From an uncultured virus (IMG/VR IMGVR_UViG_3300029305_006210) (Duplodnaviria > Heunggongvirae > Uroviricota > Caudoviricetes), in IMG/VR virus record IMGVR_UViG_3300029305_006210, positions 56,873-76,872 of that record: DNA of 20,000 nt; one strand, given 5' to 3'. The notes beneath the pieces are model-generated. The model did no database searches and was not told the DNA's origin. It saw only the letters and a list, made by a program, of their open reading frames with translations. Of this stretch, positions 1 through 14,666 are shown piece after piece; position 1 is the stretch's first letter, and every line of letters starts with the position of its first letter. A program made the position numbers and the translations under genes.

Positions 1-316
1 ACACTTCTCCATCATCTGCAAAGAGTATATTAGGATAATCTTCTTCATACCATACTATTCCGCCATTAAAAACTTTTGTCTGATATGATGCAATTTCATA
101 AGGTCTTTGTTCGTGATTTCCATGAATACATAATAATGTAATTGGAATATCATCTTGAATCATACTTTTAATTTGTTTATCTTTATAATCCATAAAATAA
201 TTGATACCTGCATCTCCCAAGATAATCATCACATCATCTTTTGTCGTTCCATTTTCATAACAAAATGTTTCGATCTCATGAAAATATCCATGCGTATCAC
301 CAGTTATATAAACCAT
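1..316 (-). CDS. Calcineurin-like metallophosphoesterase (runs off the window edge)
   Basis: Manual translation from ATG at 316: MVYITGDTHG...IILGDAGINY...CIHGNHEQRP, giving the DxH, GD and GNHE motifs. RBS AAGGAG at about 325-330. Not in the ORF track. Confidence 0.9.
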   Translation of the reverse strand, partial: MVYITGDTHGYFHEIETFCYENGTTKDDVMIILGDAGINYFMDYKDKQIKSMIQDDIPITLLCIHGNHEQRPYEIASYQTKVFNGGIVWYEEDYPNILFADDGEV

Positions 317-328
317 TTTTTTTACTCC

Positions 329-622
329 TTATACATCAAGAAATTCTAATAAATCGTCTTGACTAATATTTACCTCACCGTCCGTCCAATCAATTGTATC
401 GTAGCCAAATATAAATCCAGGTTCTTTGCCAATATTATCAGCAGGCACTCCTACAAAACCCATACTATTAGGGCCACCTATTGCTCTAATATAGACATAA
501 GAACCTCTGAGATTATAACATTTATCATCCACTATGTACGTCGAATACATTTCACCAAGTTGTATGTCATCTCTAATACGAATTATATTTCCTTCCTTAA
601 AATCAGGATGTTTAAATTTCAT
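329..622 (-). CDS. Small phage protein, SH3-like family (K.G.xxRxRxDL), with C-terminal LxxFL tag
   Basis: FKEGNIIRIRDDI; ends ISQDDLLEFLDV. Confidence 0.75.
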   Translation of the reverse strand: MKFKHPDFKEGNIIRIRDDIQLGEMYSTYIVDDKCYNLRGSYVYIRAIGGPNSMGFVGVPADNIGKEPGFIFGYDTIDWTDGEVNISQDDLLEFLDV

Positions 623-626
623 ATTA

Positions 627-929
627 TCACACTCCTAAAAAATTGAATAAATCACATATATCTATGGCAAGATCAGGGCTTAAAATGTTATATTCTGATA
701 AATCAAACATCTCTGTGGTCCAAAACCAACCTCCTGCTTCTTTAACATAAAATTTCCCATTTAGACCTATCGCTGTTATAGTTACACGTTTTCCAGCAAA
801 CTTTACCATTTGAGGAGTCGCAAAATCAGCGGCAGTGTTATAATTTTCATATGTTTTTCCTTGCAAATCTGATCTTACTAACACTTTATCGCCCACTTCA
901 GGCACAAGTAGACCTTTAATATATTTCAT
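627..929 (-). CDS. Small phage protein, SH3-like family, with C-terminal LxxFL tag
   Basis: EVGDKVLVRSDL...WFWTTEMF; ends IDICDLFNFLGV. Confidence 0.8.
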   Translation of the reverse strand: MKYIKGLLVPEVGDKVLVRSDLQGKTYENYNTAADFATPQMVKFAGKRVTITAIGLNGKFYVKEAGGWFWTTEMFDLSEYNILSPDLAIDICDLFNFLGV

Positions 930-951
930 TTTTTAATTACCTCTTTTTTTT

Positions 952-1169
952 ATATTCTCTAATCTAAATATTATTTGGATACCGAGAAGGCTGCTTAACG
1001 CGTGACGTCATCCGGAAGATTCCGGTGAGAAAGTTGTGTTATTTCGCATATGCGGATGGGCTCAGTGACCTGGAGACCTGCGTGCTCCTTCCTGGTTATT
1101 TATGAACAATTCGAAAACTCTGATTACACCAAGAGCTGTTTTTTAAAAAAACAATGCATTAGAAAATAT
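952..1169 (-). ncRNA. Retron-like msr/msd element A
   Basis: Terminal inverted repeat ATATTTTCTAAT (1169-1158) / ATTAGAGAATAT (963-952), unpaired G at 1157, a small hairpin, then AGCTCT-TGGTGTAATC-AGAGTT (1137-1116). GC-rich structured interior. Confidence 0.75.
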
Positions 1170-1172
1170 TAA

Positions 1173-1574
1173 TTATATATTTAAAAAATTCATTAAACTG
1201 TTTTGATATATTACCATTTTAGGCACTTTTTCAAATTCAATATCTGTAAATAGATAGTCTGTAATCTCAGTCCCATTGTCTAAACTACTACTTCCATCGC
1301 AGTGAATATGCAGTATTCCATCACAATCTTCTGCACAATAAATAGAAACCCACTCATTAAATTCAAACTCAAATACTTCTCTTTCTTTAACCCTTTTTAA
1401 ATCGTCTAAGAGCGTGGAATTTGAATATACTGTTATATCTAAAAAACTTTCTAAATATAACATTGTTTGCAGAAACTCTTCTCTTGTCTCACATATTATT
1501 CCAATGGCTTCTGGGTTTGTCCAATGTAATAAAAATCTATTAATATCAAATTTAATTTTTTCTCCGACTGCCAT
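1173..1574 (-). CDS. Hypothetical protein with C-terminal LxxFL tag
   Basis: 133 aa, RBS AGGAG; KFDINRF near the N-terminus resembles the MYDIDRF family; ends IYQNSLMNFLNI. Confidence 0.75.
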   Translation of the reverse strand: MAVGEKIKFDINRFLLHWTNPEAIGIICETREEFLQTMLYLESFLDITVYSNSTLLDDLKRVKEREVFEFEFNEWVSIYCAEDCDGILHIHCDGSSSLDNGTEITDYLFTDIEFEKVPKMVIYQNSLMNFLNI

Positions 1575-1601
1575 AACTAAAATCTCCTTATTGTTTAAAT
1601 T

Positions 1602-1934
1602 TTATTGATCTAAGAAAGAAAATAAATCTTGAGAAGAGATATTTATTTCCATTACAGGTTCTAACATTTGATCATTAAACACCCACGTTTTTATACCTTT
1701 TAATCTATAAAATTTCTCATGGCCTTCTAATTGCATTACTTCAGTTTCCATGCCACGGAAACATTCCATTTCTTCGGCAAAATGAAGAGGTGAATCACCT
1801 TGGTATAAATAAAGATGATCATCAAAATCGTAATCATCTTTTCCATTTGGAAATTTTGAATTATAATATAATCCACCTATCAAATCTTGTCTTATTCTAA
1901 CTGTGTCACACACTTTAAAATTCTTACAACTCAT
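1602..1934 (-). CDS. Small phage protein, SH3-like family, with C-terminal LxxFL tag
   Basis: FKVCDTVRIRQDL...WVFNDQML; ends ISSQDLFSFLDQ. Confidence 0.8.
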   Translation of the reverse strand: MSCKNFKVCDTVRIRQDLIGGLYYNSKFPNGKDDYDFDDHLYLYQGDSPLHFAEEMECFRGMETEVMQLEGHEKFYRLKGIKTWVFNDQMLEPVMEINISSQDLFSFLDQ

Positions 1935-1936
1935 AA

Positions 1937-2197
1937 TTACCCCTTTAAAAAATTTTGCAAATCTTCAAGTTTTATTTCTTGAGGCCAATAAATTTGTTCA
2001 CCAAATGCTATTTCATAAGCTTTTAAAATTTCTTCTTTTGTCATATCAAAAGTATCATCATCATAAGATTTTAGAGTTTCAAACGAAGTACCACGTCCGC
2101 ATCTATGATCATTCCACTCTCTATCTATCGGACACTGTGAACAAAAAATTGGCGAACAAAATTCATTTAATTTTTTACGATATTTAATTAGTTCCAT
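1937..2197 (-). CDS. Cys-rich small protein (C..CxxC..CGRGT), possibly metal-binding, with LxxFL tag
   Basis: Paralog of 2199..2450; ends IKLEDLQNFLKG. Confidence 0.8.
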   Translation of the reverse strand: MELIKYRKKLNEFCSPIFCSQCPIDREWNDHRCGRGTSFETLKSYDDDTFDMTKEEILKAYEIAFGEQIYWPQEIKLEDLQNFLKG

Positions 2198-2198
2198 A

Positions 2199-2450
2199 TT
2201 AGTTTCCTAAAAATTCATTTAAGCTTTCTAAAGATATATTATCAATAATTATTGTTATATCTTTATTAAATACAGTTTTATATATCCTGATGATTTCTTC
2301 ATCTGACATATCATATTGATCATTATTTTTTTTAAAAGTAAAATGCGTACCACGCCCACATCTATATTTAGCACCTTCTAAAATACAATTATCACACGTT
2401 CTTTTACTATCGCAGAAGCGCGAGAGTTCTTTCCTATATTTTGTTAACAT
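2199..2450 (-). CDS. Cys-rich small protein (C..CxxC..CGRGT) with LxxFL tag
   Basis: KYRKELSRFC..CDNC..RCGRGTHF..YDMSDEEI aligns with its neighbour; ends ISLESLNEFLGN. Confidence 0.8.
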   Translation of the reverse strand: MLTKYRKELSRFCDSKRTCDNCILEGAKYRCGRGTHFTFKKNNDQYDMSDEEIIRIYKTVFNKDITIIIDNISLESLNEFLGN

Positions 2451-2458
2451 ATCTCCCC

Positions 2459-2779
2459 CTACATTAAAAAATCCATCAATTTTGATTTTGATGGAAAGAT
2501 AGCAGAACTACATTCTGGAGTTAAGTTTAAAATATGTTTAATTTGATAGCCTTTTTGAATACATTCGTATCTAAGTCTTGTTTTCCTTTTCAGCAAATTA
2601 TTATGACAAACTGATCCTAAGTAACATATTTCAGGTTCTATAATAATTACACCACGATTTTTTTGTTGCTTACTAAATGAGATTTCAACATTGTAATTTT
2701 TTACAATCCATTCGCAGGCTATTTTAAATTGTTCATATGTATCAAATAAAATTATTAATTTATTATGCTTTTTCTTCAT
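2459..2779 (-). CDS. Hypothetical protein with LxxFL tag
   Basis: Ends FPSKSKLMDFLM; 4-bp overlap with the upstream gene. Confidence 0.75.
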   Translation of the reverse strand: MKKKHNKLIILFDTYEQFKIACEWIVKNYNVEISFSKQQKNRGVIIIEPEICYLGSVCHNNLLKRKTRLRYECIQKGYQIKHILNLTPECSSAIFPSKSKLMDFLM

Positions 2780-3162
2780 ATTTCTAAAAAATCTTTTAAA
2801 GATATCTCAGATGGGAAAACGCCGTATACTAATTCGCTACAAGTAATCGTTTTATGAGTTATAAATTTTCGTCCTTCATTAAATAAAGGATATGTAATAT
2901 AATCATCTGGTGAATAATTTTGTGTTGCTCGTACATATTCTTTACATCTAATAAACATAGAACTACCTGCCTCGAAAAATAAAGCATACTCATCGTCTTC
3001 GGTCATTGCATATTCCATATGATCAGTCCAATCTGTATAACCTGAGGTATTTTCATTACCTGTACACCATTTTACTTCCGGATGATGGATTTCTAACCAT
3101 TGTAATGCATCAAAAACTTCGCTTTTATTATTACAAACAATAGCAGCATAATTAAAAGCCAT
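2776..3162 (-). CDS. Hypothetical protein, WxxG family, with LxxFL tag
   Basis: LQWLEIHHPEVKWCTG; ends FPSEISLKDFLEI. Confidence 0.8.
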   Translation of the reverse strand: MAFNYAAIVCNNKSEVFDALQWLEIHHPEVKWCTGNENTSGYTDWTDHMEYAMTEDDEYALFFEAGSSMFIRCKEYVRATQNYSPDDYITYPLFNEGRKFITHKTITCSELVYGVFPSEISLKDFLEI

Positions 3163-3166
3163 AACT

Positions 3167-3529
3167 TTACTCCTTTAAAAAATATAGTAAATCATCTTTT
3201 GAAATTGTATTTATAGGTAAAATATCCTTAGCATTAAAAATATGAGTTTTTCTCAGATTATTTACATGACATATATCACTAAAATATGATTGGCCGTGAC
3301 ATTTTTTTGATCTAAAAAATACAAAAGACTTTTTTAATAAATTGCTCTGTTTTATACATAACACTATTTCATCGTCATGTGGTATTTCACAATTAAGTAT
3401 GATTTCATGAAAAGTTGAAACTAATAGTTCATTTGATTTCCAACGTAACTTCGGGTAAACCCTTTCTAGATGACTAAGACATTGAAGAGCTTCATTAATT
3501 CCAAAGCATTTATATATTTCTTTTATCAT
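3167..3529 (-). CDS. Hypothetical protein, WxxG-related family, with LxxFL tag
   Basis: LSHLERVYPKLRWKS; ends ISKDDLLYFLKE. Confidence 0.75.
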   Translation of the reverse strand: MIKEIYKCFGINEALQCLSHLERVYPKLRWKSNELLVSTFHEIILNCEIPHDDEIVLCIKQSNLLKKSFVFFRSKKCHGQSYFSDICHVNNLRKTHIFNAKDILPINTISKDDLLYFLKE

Positions 3530-3541
3530 AATAATGCCTTT

Positions 3542-3844
3542 CTATATTAAAAAATCCATCAAATCGGAATTTGACGGAAATTTCATTGTGGAGTTTATTA
3601 TTTTTTGTATTGTAATTTCTGATTTAGGTGCTATTTTAGATGTTACTAAGTTAAATCGATCACACCAACACAGCTCATTATTATATACCATTAAATACAT
3701 TGGAAATTTTAATACTTTTGGTCGATGTTTTGTAGGTTTTCCTAATCCTAATACCCAATGCAACTCTGGATATTTATATTCAAGATAGTTTAATGCCATA
3801 TTAACTTCAGAATAACTATCACATTTTATAAAATAATTTTTCAT
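3542..3844 (-). CDS. Hypothetical protein, WxxG family, with LxxFL tag
   Basis: LNYLEYKYPELHWVLGLGKPT; ends FPSNSDLMDFLI. Confidence 0.8.
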   Translation of the reverse strand: MKNYFIKCDSYSEVNMALNYLEYKYPELHWVLGLGKPTKHRPKVLKFPMYLMVYNNELCWCDRFNLVTSKIAPKSEITIQKIINSTMKFPSNSDLMDFLI

Positions 3845-4234
3845 TTAATCCTCCAAAAATTCAAGCAAATCCAACTTTGATGGATATTCTATAGGTTGAT
3901 ACTTATAAAATGGATAACGCGTTTCCTTATAATCAATAGAAGATTTTGTATAAAAATTTATATAATATCGCGGAAATTTATATGTGAATTTAATAAATTT
4001 TCTTATTTGAAAAACATTTCTCCTATCATTCCATTCCCAATCCTCACTGGTTAACCAATCGCTAGGTATTCCTTTACGTATTGATAATGCCTTCGCCCCT
4101 TTAATTCTCGGCATCCATTTGATTCTTGTTTGATGCTCTATATCTTTTAAAAGACTTGCAAATTCATTATAATTTTTAACCTCAATGACAAAGGGTGCTG
4201 GAAATTCCAGTTTAATTATTTTTTTAATATTCAT
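3845..4234 (-). CDS. Hypothetical protein, WxxG-related family, with LxxFL tag
   Basis: LKDIEHQTRIKW; ends YPSKLDLLEFLED. Confidence 0.75.
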   Translation of the reverse strand: MNIKKIIKLEFPAPFVIEVKNYNEFASLLKDIEHQTRIKWMPRIKGAKALSIRKGIPSDWLTSEDWEWNDRRNVFQIRKFIKFTYKFPRYYINFYTKSSIDYKETRYPFYKYQPIEYPSKLDLLEFLED

Positions 4235-4566
4235 TATATATCACCTATAAATTTCAATAATTCTTCTTGCGAAGGAAATATACAATTTTCATCTTTACAT
4301 TGATAAAATACAACATCTGACCATGGAATTTCATCATAATATTTGGAACATCCCATACTACCAAAGCTAATACTAATGTATCCAGGGATAAATGCAGGAG
4401 TGTATCCAGTTGGTCTTTCTCCGGCATGCCATCTTATTTCAGTTTCTCTTTCTATAAAAGAAAGCACCTTATTTGCCTCTTGTAATGTTTGATAAAGGAC
4501 TCGAATATCTTCGCGCTCATTTTTTATATATGCGACTAAATCATCAAAACTAATTGTTTCTATCAT
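4234..4566 (-). CDS. Hypothetical protein, WxxG family, with LxxFL tag
   Basis: LSFIERETEIRWHAGERPT; ends FPSQEELLKFIGDI. Confidence 0.8.
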   Translation of the reverse strand: MIETISFDDLVAYIKNEREDIRVLYQTLQEANKVLSFIERETEIRWHAGERPTGYTPAFIPGYISISFGSMGCSKYYDEIPWSDVVFYQCKDENCIFPSQEELLKFIGDI

Positions 4567-4582
4567 TTTATGCTCCTTAATT

Positions 4583-4900
4583 TTAATTTAAAATATCCAT
4601 CAACATAGACTCTGATGGATATTTATATAAAAGGTCTGATGCATTAATAACTTTGAAATCCAAGTATCGTGTAGGAATATTGCCATTTATAAATAAATTA
4701 TATTTTTCACTACTTTCATCTTTGGTAAGACTATTTCCTCTAAGATATAATATACCTTGTCCTTTAAATATAGCGCTAGGTTTATAATCTAATGAATCGC
4801 CAGTACACCATTTTATAAGTGGATAGTTATTAGCCAGCCACTTTAAACATGGCTCACATTCTCCATTATCACACATAATAATAGTTTTATTTTCTATCAT
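4583..4900 (-). CDS. Hypothetical protein, WxxG family, with LxxFL-like tag
   Basis: LKWLANNYPLIKWCTG; ends YPSESMLMDILN. Confidence 0.8.
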   Translation of the reverse strand: MIENKTIIMCDNGECEPCLKWLANNYPLIKWCTGDSLDYKPSAIFKGQGILYLRGNSLTKDESSEKYNLFINGNIPTRYLDFKVINASDLLYKYPSESMLMDILN

Positions 4901-4902
4901 AA

Positions 4903-5211
4903 TTAAGCCTCCAAAAATTTTGTTAACGACGCTTCATCTGGTAGTGGTAATATAACTTCATTAAATACAGATTCAATTTCATCAAAACCTATATATACAT
5001 CTATTATCATTGATAAATCACTCCTTTTTCGCACCCAACTTAATTGATTATTGTTAATGATAAATATTGCATCCCCTTGTATAACTAACGCTTCTGTTGG
5101 ACGTCGTCCAGATGTCTTCCATCTAACCATTGGTAAATTAGCTTCAATAACTTCTAAACACGCTCTTGATTGATTACTATTTTTGCAGCAAATTGCAATA
5201 TTTTTATTCAT
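4903..5211 (-). CDS. Hypothetical protein, WxxG family, with LxxFL tag
   Basis: VRWKTSGRRPT; ends LPDEASLTKFLEA. Confidence 0.8.
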   Translation of the reverse strand: MNKNIAICCKNSNQSRACLEVIEANLPMVRWKTSGRRPTEALVIQGDAIFIINNNQLSWVRKRSDLSMIIDVYIGFDEIESVFNEVILPLPDEASLTKFLEA

Positions 5212-5216
5212 ATTTT

Positions 5217-5555
5217 TTACCTATTCAAAAATTCCACCAAACTACTTTCTGATGGCAAAATATTATAAGAAATATTATATTGTCTTTCTAAATCGCCAAA
5301 TTCAATAATCTTGCAATCAGAATACATATCAGCACAATAAACTTTATCATCAAATAATTTTCCATAAGTTAGGCGAAAATCTTTTATATAAAAGGCTACT
5401 CCTTTTTTAAAAATTTTAGATAAATAACTTGAAACAGGATTTATCGGACTATTCCCTGATCGCCATCTTACAGTAGTTTCATTTTCAAGAAACTGTAGAA
5501 AAACATCTGATTCTTCTTGATTTCTACATACGACTATCATATTGTTTATTATCAT
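5217..5555 (-). CDS. Hypothetical protein, WxxG family, with LxxFL tag
   Basis: FLQFLENETTVRWRSGNSP; ends LPSESSLVEFLNR. Confidence 0.8.
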   Translation of the reverse strand: MIINNMIVVCRNQEESDVFLQFLENETTVRWRSGNSPINPVSSYLSKIFKKGVAFYIKDFRLTYGKLFDDKVYCADMYSDCKIIEFGDLERQYNISYNILPSESSLVEFLNR

Positions 5556-5587
5556 AAAATTTACCTATTTTACACCATATAACTATA

Positions 5588-5905
5588 TTAACTTTCTAAA
5601 AATTCCAATAGACTATTTTGTGAAATGAATTTAAAATTCATTATTTTACAAAATTCATCGAAACTCAAATTAGTTTCAGGGTTAAGAAATTTTGCTACTT
5701 CATCTAAATAATCCCATGATAATCTATCATCTTCTATAAAAAAGACAACCTGATGTGTTATGGGAAATGCTATTTTAAGAGTTGGTATCTTATGCCCTGT
5801 TTGCCATTTTACATCTGTAAATTCGTAAAGCAATTGTAAAAAAGTTTCAACTTCCACCTTTTCCATACATGTTACTGTTATATTATTTAATTTCATAACT
5901 TTCAC
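5588..5905 (-). CDS. Hypothetical protein, WxxG family, with LxxFL tag
   Basis: FLQLLYEFTDVKWQTGHKIPT; ends ISQNSLLEFLES; true start may be the ATG at 5896. Confidence 0.75.
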   Translation of the reverse strand: MKVMKLNNITVTCMEKVEVETFLQLLYEFTDVKWQTGHKIPTLKIAFPITHQVVFFIEDDRLSWDYLDEVAKFLNPETNLSFDEFCKIMNFKFISQNSLLEFLES

Positions 5906-6163
5906 CTATTTTAAGAAGTCCATCAAATTTTCCTTTGATGGAAAAGTAGTATTTCCGAGGTCTAACATCTCAAAAGTATAATACCATGAATAAGTGTTTG
6001 TCTTTAGATATACCGACCTCTTTAAAATTTCAAGCACTTCAAAACCTTGAAATTTCAACGGTTTCATTCCTTCCCAATAAGGCAAACCGTTATATTCTTG
6101 ACCAATTACCAAATCTTGTCTCAAATAGACGATATCTCCCACTTTTATGCCTGGATTTACCAT
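5906..6163 (-). CDS. Small phage protein, SH3-like family, with LxxFL tag
   Basis: IKVGDIVYLRQDL...WYYTFEML; ends FPSKENLMDFLK. Confidence 0.8.
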   Translation of the reverse strand: MVNPGIKVGDIVYLRQDLVIGQEYNGLPYWEGMKPLKFQGFEVLEILKRSVYLKTNTYSWYYTFEMLDLGNTTFPSKENLMDFLK

Positions 6164-6164
6164 T

Positions 6165-6446
6165 TTAGTCCTCCAAGAATTCCATCAAAGACGCATTTGA
6201 TGGAAAAGTATAATTATATGCAAATACATCTTGATATTCAAAAGCTATTCTACGTTCGCTTATAGCTGTTACATACACACCATCATCATATACATAGTAT
6301 GTATTTACATACTCCTCATATAATTCTGTTGGAGCTTGTATAAATAATCCTTGTTCTTTTACTAGACGTAAAAATGTTCTAACATCTTCAACTGTTCTAA
6401 TATACACAGAAGATTTTCCGTCTACCCAAGATTCCCAATCAAACAT
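6165..6446 (-). CDS. Hypothetical protein with LxxFL tag (distant MxDxxxF family)
   Basis: Starts MFDWESW; ends FPSNASLMEFLED. Confidence 0.75.
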   Translation of the reverse strand: MFDWESWVDGKSSVYIRTVEDVRTFLRLVKEQGLFIQAPTELYEEYVNTYYVYDDGVYVTAISERRIAFEYQDVFAYNYTFPSNASLMEFLED

Positions 6447-6448
6447 AA

Positions 6449-6751
6449 TTATTCTCCTAAAAATTGCTTCAAGCTGGACTCAGAAATTTTTGTAATAATA
6501 AGCAGATCTGCTGCTTTAATAGACTCCCAACCATACTGTACATGGAAGTCATCGGGGCCCATTAGTATACGTTTTCTATCCTCCCAGTTATATACAACAG
6601 CATATGGCTGTTTATTTATAACATCTTCCCAAAAGCTTGATTTTTGACCTATTCCTCTTTTTGCGCAACAATCTGCAAAATCTAATATTTCTTGTTCATT
6701 ATCAAAATTTACACTTAATTTTTCATTTATAAATCTGTCAATATCGTACAT
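6449..6751 (-). CDS. Hypothetical protein, MYDIDRF paralog family, with LxxFL tag
   Basis: MYDIDRF...YGW...DL; ends ISESSLKQFLGE. Confidence 0.8.
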   Translation of the reverse strand: MYDIDRFINEKLSVNFDNEQEILDFADCCAKRGIGQKSSFWEDVINKQPYAVVYNWEDRKRILMGPDDFHVQYGWESIKAADLLIITKISESSLKQFLGE

Positions 6752-6766
6752 GATTTTTGAACTCCT

Positions 6767-6986
6767 ATTTTTTCTAATCTAAATTATCATGAAGGCGACG
6801 TATCCGGATGGCATATATTACATTTTTGCAAGCGAAGTATTGATTACGTCTTGCGAGTTTAGCTATTTGTGGTTGTATAAGGTGTTGGAATTCCAACCTG
6901 ATACTCATTTGCCCGAAAGTATCATCACGAGCTGCGAGACCAGATCTTGATGATCCTCCATGTCACTCCTTGACAATATGAAAATT
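6767..6986 (-). ncRNA. Divergent or partial retron-like element B
   Basis: Same 3' end as A and C (GATAATTTAGATTAGAAA), same ~220 nt size, 5' hairpin TGTCA-AGGAG-TGACA and many internal hairpins, but no GGTGTAATC hairpin and only weak terminal pairing. Confidence 0.5.
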
Positions 6987-7277
6987 TTATTCTTTTAAAA
7001 AATCCATCAGATTTTGCTCTGACGGATATTTCTCTTTTATTATTAAATCAGAAAATGGAATTATATCCCATCCATGTTTTAATAAAAAATTATTTTTCGC
7101 ACATGTATCTATATAGTTATGTCCTGACCACCCATATAAATATTTCCAATGTGAATAGTATGGCATTGTTACAGGTATATTGTTATTGCTACATATAACA
7201 CAGAAGGTTATATATTCATCCTCATTTTTAAACTTAAGGGCGATATTATCATGTTTAAATCTATCAATGTCGTACAT
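6987..7277 (-). CDS. Hypothetical protein, MYDIDRF paralog family, with LxxFL tag
   Basis: Close paralog of 7521..7808; ends YPSEQNLMDFLKE. Confidence 0.8.
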   Translation of the reverse strand: MYDIDRFKHDNIALKFKNEDEYITFCVICSNNNIPVTMPYYSHWKYLYGWSGHNYIDTCAKNNFLLKHGWDIIPFSDLIIKEKYPSEQNLMDFLKE

Positions 7278-7291
7278 AATAATCTCCTATA

Positions 7292-7511
7292 AATTTCTCT
7301 CTAATCTAATTATCGTAAGGAGGATCTGCTCTTCCTGGCAAAAAACCGGCGTGATTGGATTGTTAGTTGCCCACTTTCCTATAGAAAATTATTCTATTGC
7401 CAGCTTTGTGTGCGGGCCCTGCAGCTGGGTCGTCCCCCATTCTGCTCTGGCCATGTGAAAACCTTGATAACACCTAAGGCCACCTTTTTAAAGTAATACA
7501 TTAGAGAAATT
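7292..7511 (-). ncRNA. Retron-like msr/msd element C
   Basis: Terminal inverted repeat TCTCTAAT (7507-7500) / ATTAGAGA (7305-7298), G at 7499, hairpin GGCCTT-AGGTGTTATC-AAGGTT (7481-7460), GC-rich hairpin interior. Confidence 0.75.
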
Positions 7512-7520
7512 ATTGTAATT

Positions 7521-7808
7521 TTATTCTTTTAAAAAATCCATCAAATCTTGTTTTAACGGAAAATTTGGTATTATTAGTTCAGAAAAATTGTATATTATCC
7601 ATCCTTTAACTGTTAAAAAATTATCTGATGAACATGTTTGTATTTTTCTCACTCCATTAAATCCATATAAATAAGTTTTTTTTAAACTGTAGTTACAAGT
7701 ATTAATGATTTGATTTTTTTTGCAAATACCTTCAAATATCATATATTCATCTTTATTTGCAAACCGAATAGCAATTTTTTCATATTTAAATCTATCAATA
7801 TCAAACAT
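7521..7808 (-). CDS. Hypothetical protein, MYDIDRF paralog family, with LxxFL tag
   Basis: MFDIDRFKYEKIAIRF; ends FPLKQDLMDFLKE. Confidence 0.8.
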   Translation of the reverse strand: MFDIDRFKYEKIAIRFANKDEYMIFEGICKKNQIINTCNYSLKKTYLYGFNGVRKIQTCSSDNFLTVKGWIIYNFSELIIPNFPLKQDLMDFLKE

Positions 7809-8130
7809 TATCTTCCTCCAAAAAGTTTAATAGAGTATCCTTCGATATTTGTTTGCTCACCATTAAATCCTTAACAAATATAAATGGTTTATCTCCTCTA
7901 TATGTTGACATTGCACCATATCTTAACTTTAATAAAGAACTCCCTTCATTTGTTCCGTATCTTACATATGGATTTTGTGATGACTTAAACTTGTTACTAA
8001 TTATTCTTTTGAGAAATTTATAATCACCTCTTAAATTATTTTTTTGTGAGATGTCAAGAACATAATCCATTTCTTTTTCATTTATTACTACTATTGGATA
8101 ACCATTCTTCAAATAATATATTAAATCCAT
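7801..8130 (-). CDS. Hypothetical protein with LxxFL tag
   Basis: Ends ISKDTLLNFLEEDNV; overlaps the next gene by 8 bp. Confidence 0.75.
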   Translation of the reverse strand: MDLIYYLKNGYPIVVINEKEMDYVLDISQKNNLRGDYKFLKRIISNKFKSSQNPYVRYGTNEGSSLLKLRYGAMSTYRGDKPFIFVKDLMVSKQISKDTLLNFLEEDNV

Positions 8131-8134
8131 TTTT

Positions 8135-8389
8135 TTACTCCATTATGAATAATAAACTGCTATGATTATGATTTGTAGCATTACTATTATGCTTAGGCAT
8201 TATAGTTATTATCTTTTTCCTAAGCAACTGCGCACTTATATTTTTAATACAAACTGTTTCTTTGGGGTGTTCTTTACCATATATATGAATAAAAATTTCA
8301 TCATCCGGATTAAGTCCAATAATTTTAATAGCTTCTTTTAATGAAATTTTTTTATCTTTTTCTTCTTTAGCTTTTTTAGGCCTTGCCAT
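8135..8389 (-). CDS. Small basic hypothetical protein, first gene after the RT and element D
   Basis: MARPKKAKEEKDKK, strong RBS GAGGAGG; lacks the LxxFL tag. Confidence 0.75.
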   Translation of the reverse strand: MARPKKAKEEKDKKISLKEAIKIIGLNPDDEIFIHIYGKEHPKETVCIKNISAQLLRKKIITIMPKHNSNATNHNHSSLLFIME

Positions 8390-8406
8390 ATTTTCCTCCT
8401 CATAAG

Positions 8407-8600
8407 TTTATAACTTAATACAGAGGAAGCGTCTGCACTTCTTCCTCTGCTTTTTGTATAAGTTATAAAAATTTTCAAGACTTCAGAAGCGCCTAGCGCT
8501 GCTGATCGTCTTGAAAATTATGTGTTACTGTGTTCAATAACCATTTGTTAATTCTGATTACACCTAGAACTACCCGCTTAATGCTGGTAATGTGCAGAAT
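8407..8600 (-). ncRNA. RT-adjacent structured RNA, element D
   Basis: Begins about 10 nt after the RT stop. Hairpin TACC..GGTA (8589-8571), AGTTCT-AGGTGTAATC-AGAATT (8571-8550), then two long hairpins at 8470-8519 (12-bp perfect base) and 8407-8469. Confidence 0.75.
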
Positions 8601-8610
8601 CTTTTTCTAT

Positions 8611-9918
8611 TTATTGACCGTTTTTGATATCGGCCTTAATAGCTCCTCTTATATCTCCAAATTTTCGTGAGTATTCGTCTATAATATGCTCTATAGTTTC
8701 TGGTTCAATAGATTTACAATATGAAATTTCACCTTGTAAATGCTGCACATCTTCTTTACTCCACATGCACCCTTTATTTCTATCTAACATATAATTCGAC
8801 AATATGGCTTTTAATTGCTTTTTCCTTTTATGTCCCACTGTTGGAGTATGACTTTGGTTAAGCATTAAACCTAACATCCAGTTAGATCCAGCATTTGAAC
8901 CATATCTTGTTTTGCTATCATTTAAAGAAAAAGGCGCATCGTAATGCGCCAGTACTTTCTTTATGTAATCTACTATTTCATGATGGTTAAATTTAAACCT
9001 ATTTGATATCATAATGTCATCAGCATATCGAGTATAAACAAATCCACATTCATTTTCCGCGAAAATCTTATTGCTCTTTAAGGCATTTGACAGATGATGG
9101 TCTATAGGAATCATCATTATATTTGTTAATATTGGTGACATTGGTGTACCCTGAGGCAAACCGCCGTTCAAGAAACATAAGTTCAGGCAATTTTTTACTG
9201 CCCGCTTACCCCGTGAACTTCTCATGATTTCTGAAAAAGGATATATGTCAGAAAACATTCTCATTACATATTCTAATGAGGTACTACCAAAAAAGTTTGA
9301 GAAGTCAATTTTTAGAAACCAATTGCTCTTATTATTTGCATGTTTCATAACAGCGTCCTTAGTGCTTCTGTTGTTGATATATGCAAACGCTGCGGTATGA
9401 TAATAACATCCATCCATAAGGATCTCGAAGGCTAATTTCATATGGCTTAAGCAATCTTTTAACTCATCACATGGAGCATCAATACGTCTCCACTTTTTGT
9501 GCCCAGGCTCTGAACTTGCTTTGGGAATGAAAAATGTATCGTACATATGAGAATATTTTAATCCCATTGTCGCCATTTCTTTTGCAGCTTCATGTTTTGC
9601 TGCGTCTTTATCTAGCCCTGCCCTTTTGTATTTCCTTATTAAATCTACTTGAAGTTCGTAGTTATAATCTGGATGTCCATTATTAATATCCAAGTGTTGA
9701 TATTTTTTATACAACTTCTCTAAAATTTCAATCTGTTTTGGAATATTTAATTCTGTCAATTTTTCAAGTGAAATACTATCATAGTAATATGTTCTTGTTC
9801 CGGTAGTCTGATATTTTGTAGGAGGCCGTAACATATCTACAGTTACTAAGTCATTAAGAAAGTCGAGCAAATCAATCTCTTTCTTTCTCGGCTTTAACCT
9901 GGTTGTTACATAAGGCAT
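8611..9918 (-). CDS. Reverse transcriptase, retron-like
   Basis: RT motifs KxxxxGxxKWRRIDAP, KIDFSNFFGS, LPQGTPMSP, YTRYADD, and MLG at the retron VTG position; no maturase or endonuclease domain visible. Confidence 0.93.
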   Translation of the reverse strand: MPYVTTRLKPRKKEIDLLDFLNDLVTVDMLRPPTKYQTTGTRTYYYDSISLEKLTELNIPKQIEILEKLYKKYQHLDINNGHPDYNYELQVDLIRKYKRAGLDKDAAKHEAAKEMATMGLKYSHMYDTFFIPKASSEPGHKKWRRIDAPCDELKDCLSHMKLAFEILMDGCYYHTAAFAYINNRSTKDAVMKHANNKSNWFLKIDFSNFFGSTSLEYVMRMFSDIYPFSEIMRSSRGKRAVKNCLNLCFLNGGLPQGTPMSPILTNIMMIPIDHHLSNALKSNKIFAENECGFVYTRYADDIMISNRFKFNHHEIVDYIKKVLAHYDAPFSLNDSKTRYGSNAGSNWMLGLMLNQSHTPTVGHKRKKQLKAILSNYMLDRNKGCMWSKEDVQHLQGEISYCKSIEPETIEHIIDEYSRKFGDIRGAIKADIKNGQ

Positions 9919-9933
9919 CTTTTCACCTCCTCT

Positions 9934-10632
9934 TTATACTGCTGCCATCATATCATCACGTCCAAATGTATCGATAGCGTGAAACTTTGAATTGTAAAAC
10001 ATGGTTTTCTGTAATGCCTTTTTATCCTTTACAAAATGAACAAAGTTTTGAATTCCACAATTTACGATTCCAGTGATTGTATAGAAGATACTTAATGTTT
10101 CTCTACATGCTGACATCGGTGTTTGTTCTCTAGCTTCTTCGTCAGTGAAATCCATTGATGCATAGAGATCATCCTTCATCTTTACACTGCTCCAATCTGC
10201 AGCATAATGCTGTGCGTCTTCAAGCCTCATTCTGAAATCAAACATTGCTACAACATTTGGATTGTACTTATTTGCTTCTACGATCTTTTTTCTAATTTCA
10301 ATAGAATCAACTGCAATGAATACATACCCATTAAGCTGCTGATTAGTATAGAAACCTTTTGTCTGAATGAAATGTTCGATATCTGGGTTTACCTCGATCA
10401 ACATATCCTTTAATGCTTCAGTCTTTTGACGTCCAATATCAATAGAACGATACATCTGATTTGCTACATTCTTAGATTCAACAACATCTTCATCATATAA
10501 AACAAAGTTTGTTAATCCAAGTTTTGCTAACATATAAGCGAGTGTGGATCCAATAGCTCCACACCCTACAATATGAATCTTCTCAGTAACAGTTTCAGGC
10601 TGAAAAAATTCGTGATGTTTATTTAAATTCAT
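9934..10632 (-). CDS. ThiF/E1-like ubiquitin-activating enzyme
   Basis: IVGCGAIGS nucleotide-binding loop, LYDEDVVESKNVANQ, GRQKTEAL, AVDS; candidate catalytic Cys in MSAC. Confidence 0.9.
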   Translation of the reverse strand: MNLNKHHEFFQPETVTEKIHIVGCGAIGSTLAYMLAKLGLTNFVLYDEDVVESKNVANQMYRSIDIGRQKTEALKDMLIEVNPDIEHFIQTKGFYTNQQLNGYVFIAVDSIEIRKKIVEANKYNPNVVAMFDFRMRLEDAQHYAADWSSVKMKDDLYASMDFTDEEAREQTPMSACRETLSIFYTITGIVNCGIQNFVHFVKDKKALQKTMFYNSKFHAIDTFGRDDMMAAV

Positions 10633-11744
10633 TACTTTTCCTCCTCGGCTTCTACCTCTAATGTTATAAGTAACATTTCCTTCTGTTCTTTGTCTGTTTT
10701 TACTTCCACAGATTTCACGCTTAATCCCATAACAAGTCTAATAGCACTTACACTTGTCATATCTACAAGTACACCCTTTTTATCTACCACCTTGAAATAT
10801 GCATACTTTTTATCGAGGCAATAATCGAAAATTGACATTGCTACTGAATTTGGTGCAGTTAACGGATCATCTGTTTTGGCAGTTGTAAGATCTTTGAAAG
10901 CATATTCATTACCAAAATAATCTTTGCATGTAACATCATAATATTTAGGATAGATCGTATAAATTTCATAGATTGATGAATTAGTCGGTTTAAAAGTAAC
11001 AGCATAACTTTTAGGAATAAACTCATTATCTGTTTTCTTTTCTGCAGACATGTATCCATCAAGCCACTGATCCCAATCATACATGTCACTAGCATAATTA
11101 TTTAATGGATATATGTCTTGTTTCGTCTCTTTTTTCTTCGAATAAAGGTATGACCCTGGTAACGGCTGTTTCTTTTCTCCGCCGCCGAAGAGAAAGTATG
11201 TAGATGATTTAGGGCTAGGAATATCTTTAACAAGCTTCTTGCTTTCTTCATAGTATTCTGAATTAGAAAGACCTTCTTCTACTTCAATAACGATTACAAT
11301 ATCGCTATTCTTATATTCAATACTATCCTCTGCGTCCATGATCCACCATGTCATTTCCATTTTTTTATTCATTATCATAGCAATCGTGAATCGCTTATCA
11401 TTAGCAGCAGCATTTGATGTTGCGAATCTTTTCCATGATTCAGTATCTGTTGATGATGGTGACACACTCATATTTACATGAGAATGACCATGAAAACGTC
11501 TGGAGTTGTATTCTTCATCTGAGAGGCTATCTTTCCATTCGATCATTTCATCTAATGACTCATCAATTGTATCTTCTACATAGGCTGAAGATACTAATTG
11601 TGGATAAATCAGAATATCTTTAATTCTGTATTCGCCAACGGCAATTTTTTCTACTGTACCGAACCAGCCCACTTCTTTATCATGCCCGATGACTAACGCC
11701 TGCATCTTAATCCATGCAGATGGTGAAATTCTAACTTTAGCCAT
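10632..11744 (-). CDS. JAB/MPN+ domain metalloprotease with C-terminal extension
   Basis: N-terminal EVGW glutamate and HSHVNMSVSPSSTD, matching HxHx7Sx2D. Confidence 0.88.
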   Translation of the reverse strand: MAKVRISPSAWIKMQALVIGHDKEVGWFGTVEKIAVGEYRIKDILIYPQLVSSAYVEDTIDESLDEMIEWKDSLSDEEYNSRRFHGHSHVNMSVSPSSTDTESWKRFATSNAAANDKRFTIAMIMNKKMEMTWWIMDAEDSIEYKNSDIVIVIEVEEGLSNSEYYEESKKLVKDIPSPKSSTYFLFGGGEKKQPLPGSYLYSKKKETKQDIYPLNNYASDMYDWDQWLDGYMSAEKKTDNEFIPKSYAVTFKPTNSSIYEIYTIYPKYYDVTCKDYFGNEYAFKDLTTAKTDDPLTAPNSVAMSIFDYCLDKKYAYFKVVDKKGVLVDMTSVSAIRLVMGLSVKSVEVKTDKEQKEMLLITLEVEAEEEK

Positions 11745-11747
11745 AAT

Positions 11748-13142
11748 TTATTCAGCCTCCTTTTCCTTTCTAATATACTCAATTGCTCCTGCAATATCTT
11801 CAAATTCACCATTCGGTAATTCAATACACTTATTTTCACAAACACCCTTTAACAGATACACGCCAGCGGCATCGTCTGATAATGTGATTTGTTTTGCGGC
11901 ATATAAGATCTGATTTAATGCTTCGACAAATCTATTTGCAATTGAGTATTGTGCAATTCTTGTTTCAGAATTTCCAAAACAAGAATAATGTGCTCCAAGA
12001 TGTGGATGTGGCATTGAATTTTTGCTTGCGACTTTTTCTGCATGTACCCTTCCAGATACAATGTTCAGATCAATCTTCATACTTGTCCATAATTTGAATT
12101 CATTAGTCTCTGCAATTCTTCTGTAGAACTCCTTGATTTCTTCTGTTGTAAATGAGCCATAAACCTCCCTTATGAACTCTTTTGGCACATCACCATTGCA
12201 ATGCTCCAGCTTGCCGAACATGTATGAAGTTCCATTATTATCTCTAATGATACTGTAATAATCTTCTTCTTCGGTAAACTGATCCAACATTGCAGTAATT
12301 TCAAAGGTAATAGTTTCATCATTAACGTTTGCAATTGAAATTTTTTCTCTACTTGATTCAATGAATTCTACAATTTCCATAACTGGTGAATGCATTGCGT
12401 CTCTATCCATTCTCATAGATCTTAATGCATTTTGCTGCTGCTTCAGCTCCATATTATAGTTATATATACTTTCAAAACGCTCTCTGATACGCTCTTCGAT
12501 CTCCTTGACTCTTCTTTCCGCTTCAACGACTTTTTTCTCAGTAATTCTATCAGCCATTTTCAGCATTTTATTCATTAATACTTTATCACTAAGGCCAAGT
12601 TCTGTTACCATGGCTTCAAATTCGAGCTGAAATTTTGGAAGTAATTCATTATTAATGAACATTGGTGCAATCTCTTTTGAAATTTTTTCAGTTCCGGCAC
12701 TGAAATACCATGGAAATAACTTAGTTGCGATTGCACAGAATATCTTTTCTGTATAGCTATTGAAGACAGAATAGCCTGTTGAATTATTTCTTGTTACATG
12801 AATAACTCTCATATCAGGATTGATGTAAATTTTATATTTAGGCTGATCATCCTGAATTCCCTGACTTACAAACATACTTATAAGTTCATTGTAACATTCT
12901 TCCATGTAAGGAGAGCCACCAATGATTATGGCATTTTTTGCATTTGTCAGATCGTGTGAAGAATTATCTTCCAGTGTAATAATTTTTAATTTTTCTTCTT
13001 CATAAACATAACTTTCGATAGAAAGTAAGTGCTTATATAATAAGAACATTTTTAACATAGTTGAATATGAAGAGAAACTGTTTACATCAATTTCATTGTC
13101 ATATAACTCAAAAATTGATTTTTCGATATCCGGGTTTAACAT
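11748..13142 (-). CDS. Putative prokaryotic E2-like protein with central coiled coil
   Basis: C-terminal PHPHLGAHYSCFGN resembles the E2 HP(N/H)...C signature; coiled coil at about aa 200-250; lies between Ubl and JAB/E1 genes. Confidence 0.6.
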   Translation of the reverse strand: MLNPDIEKSIFELYDNEIDVNSFSSYSTMLKMFLLYKHLLSIESYVYEEEKLKIITLEDNSSHDLTNAKNAIIIGGSPYMEECYNELISMFVSQGIQDDQPKYKIYINPDMRVIHVTRNNSTGYSVFNSYTEKIFCAIATKLFPWYFSAGTEKISKEIAPMFINNELLPKFQLEFEAMVTELGLSDKVLMNKMLKMADRITEKKVVEAERRVKEIEERIRERFESIYNYNMELKQQQNALRSMRMDRDAMHSPVMEIVEFIESSREKISIANVNDETITFEITAMLDQFTEEEDYYSIIRDNNGTSYMFGKLEHCNGDVPKEFIREVYGSFTTEEIKEFYRRIAETNEFKLWTSMKIDLNIVSGRVHAEKVASKNSMPHPHLGAHYSCFGNSETRIAQYSIANRFVEALNQILYAAKQITLSDDAAGVYLLKGVCENKCIELPNGEFEDIAGAIEYIRKEKEAE

Positions 13143-13174
13143 GCGATTTTCCTTTCTTTTTTTTAATTATTGGG

Positions 13175-13463
13175 TTTATTACAATCTAATAGTGAGAATT
13201 ATAACGCTGCAGATGATCAAAGAAGGTTTTAACCTTTTAAGTTAACTGCGTTATATCAGGTAATCAGTGATATTCTGATTGTGAATTAACCTAGAAGTTA
13301 TGTATTTTTATCCCGAGCGAAGTATTTCGTTGAATAAAGATTTGCGTTTAACTTCTTTATAATGAATTAATTAGCTTCCTGCCTCCAGTCGTTTTCTCTA
13401 GACCATATGAATACTCGGATTACACCGCGAGCAGTTTTATAAAAAACAATACATTGTAATAAA
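13175..13463 (-). ncRNA. Retron-like msr/msd element E
   Basis: Perfect 11-bp terminal inverted repeat TTTATTACAAT (13463-13453) / ATTGTAATAAA (13185-13175), G at 13452, hairpin TGCTCG-CGGTGTAATC-CGAGTA (13433-13412), several internal hairpins (e.g. 13293-13356). Confidence 0.78.
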
Positions 13464-13486
13464 AAAAGCGGGGATTTCTCCCCGCT
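13461..13486 (-). terminator. Rho-independent terminator after the Ubl gene
   Basis: AGCGGGGA-GAAA-TCCCCGCT followed by a T-tract. Confidence 0.8.
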
Positions 13487-13504
13487 ATGTATTAAATAAA
13501 ATGA

Positions 13505-13753
13505 CTAAGCAGCGTTGCTTGTCTTGATTGTTTCGTACAGCATAATTGTAGCGCCGTTGGATGCAAGACCTGCATCAACAATCTGATCAAATGTCATATC
13601 CAGCTGAGTTTCAGTCAGCATTGTTCCACCGATTGAGAACTTTGCTCCCATCATAGCATTCTTATCCTGAAGATAATTTCTAACTGTTGTTGTACCTGAT
13701 ACGATTTCTTCTGCATGTCTCTGTGCGCTTGCGATGAACTTAACTTTTACCAT
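13505..13753 (-). CDS. Ubiquitin-like (beta-grasp) protein
   Basis: 82 aa with beta-grasp pattern (MVKVKFI...TTVRNYL...IGGTML...LDMTF...IML); upstream of E2/JAB/E1; ends KTSNAA with no Gly. Confidence 0.7.
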   Translation of the reverse strand: MVKVKFIASAQRHAEEIVSGTTTVRNYLQDKNAMMGAKFSIGGTMLTETQLDMTFDQIVDAGLASNGATIMLYETIKTSNAA

Positions 13754-14445: not shown

Positions 14446-14666
14446 TAATGTTTTATATCACCTAAGAATTCTTCATTAGGCAACTTTTTTGTATCTATAA
14501 CCCCTTTTTCTATTATTTGTATGAGGATTGTATCCTCATCATATCTAATAACCGTTGTTATTCGGCCGTTGATATCTCTATCGTCAAGTAACACATGGTC
14601 AAACGGATCATTATGATAGTAGTTATACACTGATTCTTTGAACTGTTCCGCTGTCAATCTCGACAT
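14445..14666 (-). CDS. Hypothetical protein
   Basis: Likely start MSRLTAEQ at 14666 behind GGAGG. Confidence 0.7.
   Translation of the reverse strand: MSRLTAEQFKESVYNYYHNDPFDHVLLDDRDINGRITTVIRYDEDTILIQIIEKGVIDTKKLPNEEFLGDIKH

Follow-up and report, generated by a model that had tools for sequence, protein, structure and literature searches.

A selected C-terminal helix shared by 22 consecutive small proteins of an uncultured phage is a candidate docking tag and overlaps nucleotide-level signals

The DNA analysed here (the window, 20,000 nt) forms the last 20 kb of the 76,872-bp single-contig IMG/VR record IMGVR_UViG_3300029305_006210 (positions 56,873 to 76,872; G+C 32%), which stems from an uncultured virus of the Caudoviricetes. 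All 22 consecutive open reading frames (ORFs) on the minus strand between window positions 329 and 8130, encoding proteins of 83–133 amino acids, terminate in one short motif, hereafter the tag (Table 1). This tag is real, lineage-restricted, modular, under purifying selection at the protein level and a helix by prediction. We consider it probable (roughly 60%) that it represents a modular helix docking its various carriers onto a single partner, with two nucleotide-level layers on top of the peptide. Docking is favoured because the peptide is selected at the protein level, is found on unrelated carriers and is present in some homologues and absent from others.

Aligned on an invariant leucine (Leu0), the tag consensus reads [FY]-[PI]-S-x-x-[DS]-L-[ML]-[DEN]-F-L, followed by one to five residues. 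Leu0 and Pro/Ile at position -5 are found in 22/22 array tags, Phe+3 and Leu+4 in 21/22 each and Ser-4 in 17/22. Two residues follow FL in 16 of these tags, one residue in four, and three and five residues in one tag each. The 22 tags contain 54 acidic and 18 basic residues. A scan of the whole 76,872-bp record revealed two further tagged ORFs outside the array (genome positions in Table 1), which raises the set to 24 tags. A C-terminal position-specific scoring matrix derived from these 24 tags scored them at 18–32 bits, compared to a maximum of 8.5 bits among 2636 non-overlapping ORFs of other phage loci. Thus, the series of 22 small proteins sharing a C-terminus, as noticed in a preliminary description of this DNA, was recovered completely and lies far beyond chance.

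A 15-column hidden Markov model (HMM) of the tag matched 22 sites of the own record, namely 21 array tags and ORF 55532-55915. It had zero matches in four closer relatives and four weak single matches in 50 related records, among them G022 and G029. The G029 match was rejected as a C-terminal tag, since an ORF of about 353 amino acids extends beyond the site on both sides. Of 7985 ORFs of related loci, 121 contained the loose pattern L..F[LI] within their last 11 residues. When viral, genome and metagenome contigs were screened for degenerate DNA encoding FPSxxxLMDFL or PSKxxLMDFL, multiple matches were obtained solely in the own IMG/VR contig, and single matches elsewhere were at about chance level and almost never C-terminal. 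Among GenBank phages no match was obtained for the array DNA (blastn) or for a tagged homologue (tblastn), and the remaining window gave a single tRNA-like match of 57 nt (megablast). A literature search on the tag pentapeptides returned only noise, and one on conserved C-terminal motifs of small phage proteins and sliding clamps returned nothing on point. In the searches made, we therefore found no description of the tag in the literature or in GenBank phages.

Over the five conserved columns the proportion of synonymous differences (pS) is 0.75–0.77, which is near saturation, and the proportion of nonsynonymous differences (pN) is 0.22, giving a pN/pS ratio of 0.29 compared to about 0.8 at the variable tag columns. 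The same pattern applies to the 16 tags that do not form a hairpin (see below). Leu0 is encoded by TTG (10), TTA (9), CTA (2) and CTG (1) in the array and by five codons over all 24 tags, and Ser-4 by TCA, TCT, TCG and AGT, i.e. by both the TCN and the AGT family. Conservation is thus overall not stronger at the DNA than at the protein level, in agreement with the preliminary description, which had taken it for protein-level conservation. Its remark that codons vary is right, as Leu0 and Ser-4 show, with the correction that in 8/24 tags codon choice is constrained by an RNA hairpin. Accordingly, the tag is a protein-level feature, whose PS...LM[DE]FL form additionally serves as a selected terminator-like RNA element.

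BLAST clustering of the tag-stripped proteins yielded an SH3-like cluster (four members), a Cys-rich CGRGT cluster (two), a W..G cluster (eight), a MYDIDRF cluster (three) and singletons, the same four N-terminal groups that had been proposed before. The four SH3-like members include the ORF starting at window position 627 (w627; other ORFs are named likewise), which was added through phrog_7488. By alignment and HMM the W..G family, which has an alpha/beta domain, increases to 11 members, and the MYDIDRF family comprises three, perhaps four. None of the 22 tagged proteins had a Pfam match above the curated cut-off. Comparison of the tag-stripped profiles by hhalign gave probabilities of 0.1–0.2% for the SH3-like group against the others (0.1% against W..G) and of 12% for W..G against MYDIDRF; the latter two families may therefore be distantly related. 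As judged from clustering, profile comparison and the structure models described next, the tag is carried by at least three unrelated domain types.

In AlphaFold2 models of two carriers the tag forms an eight-residue terminal helix. The model of w3542 (W..G family; predicted local distance difference test score, pLDDT, 87) consists of an alpha/beta domain with the tag as helix 92–99, and the PDB contained no fold match for this domain (Foldseek best E 1.8; VIA-align best Z 3.6). The model of w5906 (pLDDT 73) is a small all-beta barrel, for which only weak SH3/PWWP-like rows were retrieved from the PDB (best E 0.12); its tag helix (77–84) comes after a linker with a pLDDT below 50.

Homologues of the W..G family demonstrate that domain and tag can be separated. 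An exhaustive HMMER search collected 47 proteins, 36 of them from other sources. As classified by the tag score, 13 of these 36 carry the canonical PSKxxLM[DE]FL, six a variant such as MPTxxxL[IM]xFLNG, and 17 are untagged. Among the untagged proteins are single-domain forms as well as tandem repeats and fusions, the latter with DUF3310 or a deoxynucleoside triphosphate diphosphohydrolase domain. Mutual identity among the 19 tagged homologues is 19–33%. Since distant homologues carry the tag while others lack it, we take the tag to be old, conserved and modular. Tagged homologues are rare and were found in Logan and ENA assemblies only. Several of them have equally sized longest contigs (118,542, 19,910, 4,286 and 3,097 bp); this points to tag arrays in a few further uncultured phages at least. 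A word-indexed protein search with the W..G family retrieved the own proteins and one near-identical variant only, and none of 37 matches from a pattern search for loci related to the tagged homologues was confirmed. Contigs of four faecal DNA runs contained the array in identical fragments together with many short partial matches. Recombination at the tags was not called from these runs, as the sides of the joints (21–24 letters) are too weak.

The same models and homologues bear on the idea that the helix has no external partner and is a structural or self-association element of one fast-diverging superfamily, kept for folding or solubility. The tag helix of w3542 is predicted as confidently as its domain (pLDDT about 85), and W..G and MYDIDRF are possibly distant relatives (the 12% mentioned above). 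However, the 17 untagged homologues, single-domain ones included, do without the tag, the SH3-like and Cys-rich carriers are unrelated to the other groups, and the helix is detached in the SH3-like model. We regard this explanation as unlikely.

The tag is a protein module, by prediction a short acidic amphipathic helix at the C-terminus with Pro/Ile-Ser as N-cap followed by L-[ML]-[DE]-F-L; a short linker connects it to the small domains, which belong to at least three unrelated kinds. In the docking reading, it would attach different early-region proteins to a common partner and thereby gather many interchangeable domains at one site. Both the binding of a partner and its identity are inferred. 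On top of the peptide lie an overlap with the Shine-Dalgarno sequence and, in 8/24 tags, a hairpin with U-tract. The preliminary description had already proposed a docking or sorting peptide; this general idea is the best supported one, given the selection on the protein, the unrelated folds and the presence or absence of the tag among homologues, while the link it drew to the neighbouring ubiquitin-like (Ubl) and reverse transcriptase (RT) genes finds no support in co-occurrence.

The first nucleotide-level layer concerns the one to five residues after FL, which largely reflect the Shine-Dalgarno sequence of the next gene. In 9/22 array tags the codons of this tail (GE, ED, KE, KG, GV etc.) form the Shine-Dalgarno sequence for the closely following gene, and G-E endings are likewise present in a tagless relative.

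The second layer is the hairpin. A terminator scan of 10 kb detected 13 sites with hairpin and T-run compared to 2.9 ± 1.8 in shuffled sequences, four of them inside tags. By folding, 8/24 tags form stems of 8–13 bp with a loop of 6–8 nt and a U-tract (-7.8 to -14.4 kcal/mol), eight tags thereby qualifying as candidate terminators by folding and four by the consensus scan. The remaining 16 have no hairpin, their minimum free energy (-0.1 to -4.1 kcal/mol) not differing from that of recodings. For six of the eight hairpin tags, the folding energy does not exceed the 2nd percentile obtained from 300 synonymous recodings. Position -5 is Pro and positions 0/+1 are L-[MV] in all eight, and their Leu0 codon is NTG in 8/8 compared to a usage of 19%. 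The stem is formed by pairing of CCR-TCA (Pro-Ser; CCG-TTA, Pro-Leu, in w7521) with (T/C)TG-ATG/GTG-G (Leu-Met/Val-Asp/Glu), and this inverted repeat occurs on the sense strand of the record in eight copies, all within tags and none elsewhere. Judged from sequence and folding, intrinsic termination or attenuation is the most likely role of the hairpin with its U-tract. The eight tags share stem length, loop size and U-tract with intrinsic terminators; unlike these, the hairpins have stems rich in A and U, are located within coding sequence just 5′ of the stop codon and are missing from 16/24 tags. The two strongest or most canonical hairpins (w6987, w7521) end genes preceding gaps of about 240 nt. 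Non-coding gaps of this size were observed at 6752–6986 and 7278–7520; each precedes a MYDIDRF paralogue and each follows a tag hairpin. Each gap together with its MYDIDRF gene constitutes a tandemly duplicated leader-plus-gene unit of 534–538 nt, and the gaps are likely terminator-promoter junctions.

These observations also raise the alternative that the tag functions mainly at the RNA or DNA level (as a terminator, attenuator, mRNA-stabilising hairpin or boundary of cassette recombination) and that the peptide is incidental. It would account for the eight hairpins that are more stable than synonymous recodings, for their biased codons and U-tracts, for the two hairpins preceding gaps of about 240 nt before the next paralogue, for F-L being TTTTTA in most tags and for families of direct repeats of 34–45 nt that span the tag ends. 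Moreover, the canonical tag of other phages is the hairpin-compatible form. Against it, the 16 hairpin-free tags keep Leu0, Phe+3, Leu+4 and Ser-4 despite near-saturated synonymous sites. Over all 22 array tags the hairpin positions pair in 59% of the cells compared to 55% in shuffled sequences, i.e. an RNA helix is not conserved. The Phe and Leu+4 codons are no richer in T than the background, and Leu0 and Ser-4 are each drawn from unrelated codon families. As to cassette recombination, the only integrase of the record lies about 40 kb from the array, and the inverted repeats lie within ORFs, attC sites of integrons being located between cassettes; a repeat search of window positions 1–10000 did not turn up a template repeat of the type found in diversity-generating retroelements. 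An element acting primarily through its nucleotides is improbable.

If the tag is a docking helix, a DNA-replication hub of the sliding-clamp kind, or a reader of the acidic tail of the phage's single-stranded DNA-binding (SSB)-like protein, is a tentative candidate for its partner, which by analogy is possible rather than probable. This guess is based on the closest sequence analogue, the clamp-binding epitope [ST]LDFL[FYL] of the T4 proteins gp43, gp55 and gp33. In NC_000866 these proteins end in ..KASLDFLFG (gp43), ..SPSLDFLYEAND (gp55) and ..TNTLDFLL (gp33), with the cores SLDFLFG, SLDFLYEAND and TLDFLL. According to a review (PMC2988020), the three tails are highly similar, hydrophobic-acidic and interchangeable and bind gp45, and the gp55 tail is attached by a flexible linker. 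Like this epitope, the array tags are short, combine hydrophobic with acidic residues and terminate phage proteins that are otherwise unrelated; 0–5 trailing residues, a variable linker and a Leu/Met-Asp/Glu-Phe-Leu core are common to both. They differ in that L-[ML]-[DE]-F-L is followed by a polar residue (E/K/G/D) instead of the T4 arrangement [ST]-L-D-F-L-[FYL], and in that 24 small carriers of no assigned function stand against three polymerase or transcription factors.

Three proteins of the phage itself provide hints in the direction of such a hub: a PD-(D/E)XK exonuclease adjoining the DnaE-like polymerase has the C-terminus ..RSLEDFL, the RT has ..EIDLLDFL.. near its N-terminus, and the SSB-like protein has a related tail. 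The SSB/YorF-like protein is encoded next to a Sak4-like gene. Its acidic tail is ..ALEDLLG in this phage, ..[ST]LEDLLG in its own clade and ..DDDLF in distant relatives. The last six residues of the HK620 SSB are reported as required for Sak4 binding, and the tail of E. coli SSB is given as DDDIPF (PMC5928155). The tags resemble such tails in being acidic with a hydrophobic end, and SSB tails recruit partners; unlike SSB tails, the tags occur on many non-SSB proteins, are not always at the very end and are predicted to be helical. The identification of this 363-aa ORF, adjoining Sak4, as a beta clamp, suggested by its apparent N-terminus, was rejected: the database gene call and the aligned family start 11 residues downstream, relatives have ..DDDLF tails, and the Atlas points to SSB/YorF-like clusters.

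Several points weigh against the docking reading and its clamp version. The T4 register is not reproduced, since the tags have either an extra residue between Leu and Asp or no final aromatic residue, and either alignment of tag and T4 epitope breaks an invariant position. The PIP (PCNA-interacting protein) box and the bacterial beta-clamp motif have a conserved Gln at their first position; the tags do not, position -3 being K (6), E (6), Q (4), L (2) or N (2). The clamp profiles PF02768, PF02916 and PF00712 had no match in about 124 kb, although the two records are only 44% and 64% complete. By chance, a proteome of this size should contain the pattern L.[DENQSK]F[LI] about seven times (an estimate from assumed residue frequencies), and about five non-tag occurrences were found in real genes; these include the RT and the exonuclease. 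With about seven expected and about five observed, the tag-like stretches of RT and exonuclease are possibly coincidental. Nor would a phage obviously need more than 24 clamp-tethered small proteins. In addition, the helix of W..G proteins may, according to the model, pack onto its own domain instead of being free, and the PSKxxLM[DE]FL of other phages, known from protein sequences and able to encode the hairpin, may be partly conserved at the RNA level.

Another conceivable partner is a protease. Protease adaptors such as SspB combine a variable domain with a C-terminal tether, a design which the carriers resemble. The phage encodes an HslV/proteasome-like peptidase of the N-terminal nucleophile (Ntn) type with an invariant Met-Ser(-Val) N-terminus and a conserved Lys (34 aligned homologues), which is 57–87% identical to most of 94 homologous cluster representatives from uncultured phages; a gene for an HslU-like partner is not evident in the phage. 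The tag might thus work like the HslU tail on this orphan, well-conserved peptidase, the carriers being activators, substrates or adaptors of a phage protease. The HslV-activating octapeptides EDLSRFIL of E. coli HslU and IDLAKYIL of T. brucei HslU2 (PMC4106860) share the C-terminal D-L-x-x-F/Y-I/L spacing with the tag. However, the HslU tail stands at the very C-terminus, with two residues past the Phe (PMC4106860), whereas the number in the tags varies from two to six and the exact end is not reproduced. Moreover, the peptidase is 81–87% identical in four tagless phages, one of them 100% complete. Binding of the HslU tail also requires its terminal carboxylate, a further point against this role. 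An HslV-type peptidase occurs in 1/50 other relatives. We consider this role of the tag unlikely.

Besides tail genes, the record contains genes for an integrase, a DnaE-type polymerase, helicase, primase, exonuclease, the Sak4-like and SSB-like proteins, ribonucleotide reductase, NAD salvage and the HslV-like peptidase. A second IMG/VR contig of 110,740 bp matches the record at 99.99% identity across 14.6 kb and contributes a 47-kb structural module on the strand opposite to the array. This module carries no tagged genes, and the array belongs to an early/replication-type block on the other strand. The completeness estimated by CheckV is 44% for the record and 64% for the longer contig, so that at least 50 kb of the genome are absent from these records. 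Array DNA was found in animal faecal and gut metagenome runs, and no RNA run containing the array stretch was found among the public runs searched. Relatives of the conserved AAA ATPase are located in genomes and metagenome-assembled genomes of gut Clostridia (Lachnospiraceae, Oscillospiraceae, Ruminococcus, Blautia).

At genome positions 50133–54136 a NAD-salvage set consists of genes for nicotinamide phosphoribosyltransferase, ribose-phosphate pyrophosphokinase and NAD synthetase; a nearby 201-aa ORF is isochorismatase- or nicotinamidase-like by eye, its PHROG family being without assigned function. The protein encoded at window positions 14623–15378 shows a weak ArdA-like match (Pfam E 0.0011, 20.1 bits; cut-off 27 bits). 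It contains the tag-like INPIALEDFIGG 17 residues from its end and the next ORF is overlapped by 40–60 nt; this stretch may represent a frameshift or a decayed tag. The NAD-salvage set and the weak ArdA-like match suggest a counter-defence region surrounding the array.

The tag could also be a capsid-loading signal, with the carriers as virion cargo that, like the T4 internal proteins, is injected together with the DNA as first-wave anti-defence proteins. The location of the array within a likely counter-defence region (weak ArdA-like match, NAD salvage and the E1/JAB genes described below) would agree with this, and C-terminal cargo peptides are known from encapsulins, whose shells share the phage capsid fold. 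The internal proteins of T4, the conceptual precedent, are likewise diverse, fast-changing small proteins with only a short terminal peptide in common (PMC3012670). This T4 signal, however, is N-terminal, is removed by the prohead protease and is unrelated in sequence, whereas the tag is C-terminal. The position of the array in an early/replication-type block, on the strand opposite to a structural module that lacks tagged genes, also speaks against cargo, and we judge this function rather unlikely.

Just upstream of the array lie the genes that the preliminary description had linked to the tag; in this reading the carriers would dock onto Ubl/E2-like/JAB/E1/RT machinery as substrates or substrate adaptors. 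Array and RT gene share one strand, and 480 nt separate the RT gene from the start of the array downstream of it. Further upstream, a block of four ORFs comprises a 232-aa ThiF/E1-like protein (PF00899, E 1.1e-18), a 370-aa protein that we take to be JAB-like from its HGHSH..S..D stretch (HxH), a 464-aa protein with a weak Atlas lead to Prok-E2_D (score 0.76–0.79, a lead only) and an 82-aa candidate Ubl, which ends in ..TSNAA, not in Gly-Gly. Within the 3′ part of the 464-aa ORF, window positions 11806–11862 correspond to the tRNA-like GenBank match, 88% identical to tRNA-Met of two Streptomyces phages; ARAGORN called no tRNA there. Residues 13–23 of the RT (KEIDLLDFLND) are tag-like and are a conserved feature of this RT family, although the RT relatives have Q[IMY][ST][LF]DDIL at this place and thus do possess the Gln at the position corresponding to that of the clamp motifs; the stretch may be unrelated to the tag. 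While this neighbourhood, with E1 (ThiF), the JAB-like HxH and the weak Prok-E2_D lead, would suit the proposal, E1 active sites accept small C-terminal residues, a preference that argues against the tag. The same cluster with RT is present without a tag array in L084 and L085, and the RT is absent from five closer relatives, which are likewise tagless. The suggested co-occurrence of tag and RT/Ubl cluster was therefore not borne out with the motif HMM, as it is based on one genome, and docking onto this machinery is very unlikely.

A broader form of the docking helix would be plug-in targeting: at least 24 fast-diversifying binding domains would capture host proteins, and one adaptor helix would tether these to one phage machine (the HslV-like peptidase or the Ubl/RT genes), while the same 33 nt would act as a terminator hairpin metering expression of the array. 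We regard this as speculative and rather improbable. At the far end of the window (19475–19559), ARAGORN called a tRNA-like gene with an undetermined two-base anticodon, adjoining genes for tRNA-Ser, tRNA-Met and tRNA-Gln.

Table 1 Tagged ORFs and other features. Coordinates refer to the window unless marked as genome positions; tag coordinates are the window positions coding each tag. Hairpin entries give the inverted repeat and the folding energy in kcal/mol. SD, Shine-Dalgarno sequence
Feature	Coordinates	Strand	Product	Tag	Remarks
Tagged ORF	329..622	-	97 aa, SH3-like	338-382 (..NISQDDLLEFL+DV)	no hairpin
Tagged ORF	627..929	-	100 aa, SH3-like (phrog_7488, E 2.6e-11)	636-680	no hairpin
Tagged ORF	1173..1574	-	133 aa, aligns with W..G family	1182-1226	then 243-nt gap
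Tagged ORF	1602..1934	-	110 aa, SH3-like	1611-1655	
Tagged ORF	1937..2197	-	86 aa, Cys-rich CGRGT	1946-1990	
Tagged ORF	2199..2450	-	83 aa, Cys-rich CGRGT	2208-2252	
Tagged ORF	2459..2779	-	106 aa, W..G	2465-2509	hairpin 2473-2494, -9.4, U6
Tagged ORF	2776..3162	-	128 aa, W..G	2785-2829	no hairpin
Tagged ORF	3167..3529	-	120 aa, W..G	3176-3220	tail KE = AAGGAG = SD of next gene
Tagged ORF	3542..3844	-	100 aa, W..G	3548-3592	hairpin 3556-3577, -11.3, U6
Tagged ORF	3845..4234	-	129 aa, aligns with W..G family	3854-3898	weak hairpin only (-4.1)
Tagged ORF	4234..4566	-	110 aa, W..G	4246-4290 (end FIGDI)	
Tagged ORF	4583..4900	-	105 aa, W..G	4589-4633 (LMDIL)	hairpin 4597-4618, 13-bp stem, -13.7
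Tagged ORF	4903..5211	-	102 aa, W..G	4912-4956 (LPDEASLTKFL)	sole array tag missed by the HMM
Tagged ORF	5217..5555	-	112 aa, W..G	5226-5270	hairpin 5234-5255, -8.5, kept by G-U pairs
Tagged ORF	5588..5905	-	105 aa, W..G	5597-5641	no hairpin
Tagged ORF	5906..6163	-	85 aa, SH3-like	5912-5956	hairpin 5920-5941, -11.2
Tagged ORF	6165..6446	-	93 aa, aligns with MYDIDRF	6174-6218	hairpin 6182-6203, -11.3
Tagged ORF	6449..6751	-	100 aa, MYDIDRF	6458-6502	no hairpin
Tagged ORF	6987..7277	-	96 aa, MYDIDRF	6996-7040	strongest hairpin 7004-7025, -14.4, U6; then 235-nt non-coding gap
Tagged ORF	7521..7808	-	95 aa, MYDIDRF	7530-7574 (FPLKQDLMDFL)	hairpin 7538-7559, -7.8, U6; then 243-nt gap
Tagged ORF	7801..8130	-	109 aa, no array relatives	7819-7863	next gene overlaps, with its SD and start codon in the long tail EEDNV
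Tagged ORF outside array	genome 47884-48126				scan of whole record
Tagged ORF outside array	genome 55532-55915				scan of whole record
Reverse transcriptase	8611..9918	-	435 aa		just upstream of array
Ubl/E1-type block	9934-13753	same strand as RT	four ORFs		upstream of RT
SSB/YorF-like replication protein	genome 37444-38535 (L002:18444-19535)				adjoins Sak4-like gene; Atlas YorF/SSB-like clusters
HslV/proteasome-like Ntn peptidase	genome 49136-49636 (L003:11136-11636)				phrog_1040 E 2.3e-24; PDB 1m4y E 0.006, 5ovu E 0.0013

Few phage systems are known in which shared terminal peptides route many proteins to one place, examples being the capsid targeting sequence and the clamp tails of T4. 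The phage described here devotes about 8 kb and 22 consecutive genes for unrelated small domains to a single selected C-terminal helix, which is also encountered in further uncultured phages of the gut. Within about 45 nt, a peptide under selection coincides with a ribosome-binding site and with an RNA hairpin that is likewise selected, a compact case of multi-layer coding. If docking is true, the tag would be a ready-made portable docking peptide, and if plug-in targeting were true, the array would amount to a virus-encoded library for targeted degradation or targeted modification. The partner, if found, would reveal a hub wired to dozens of accessory proteins and provide a handle on a large block of phage 'dark matter'.

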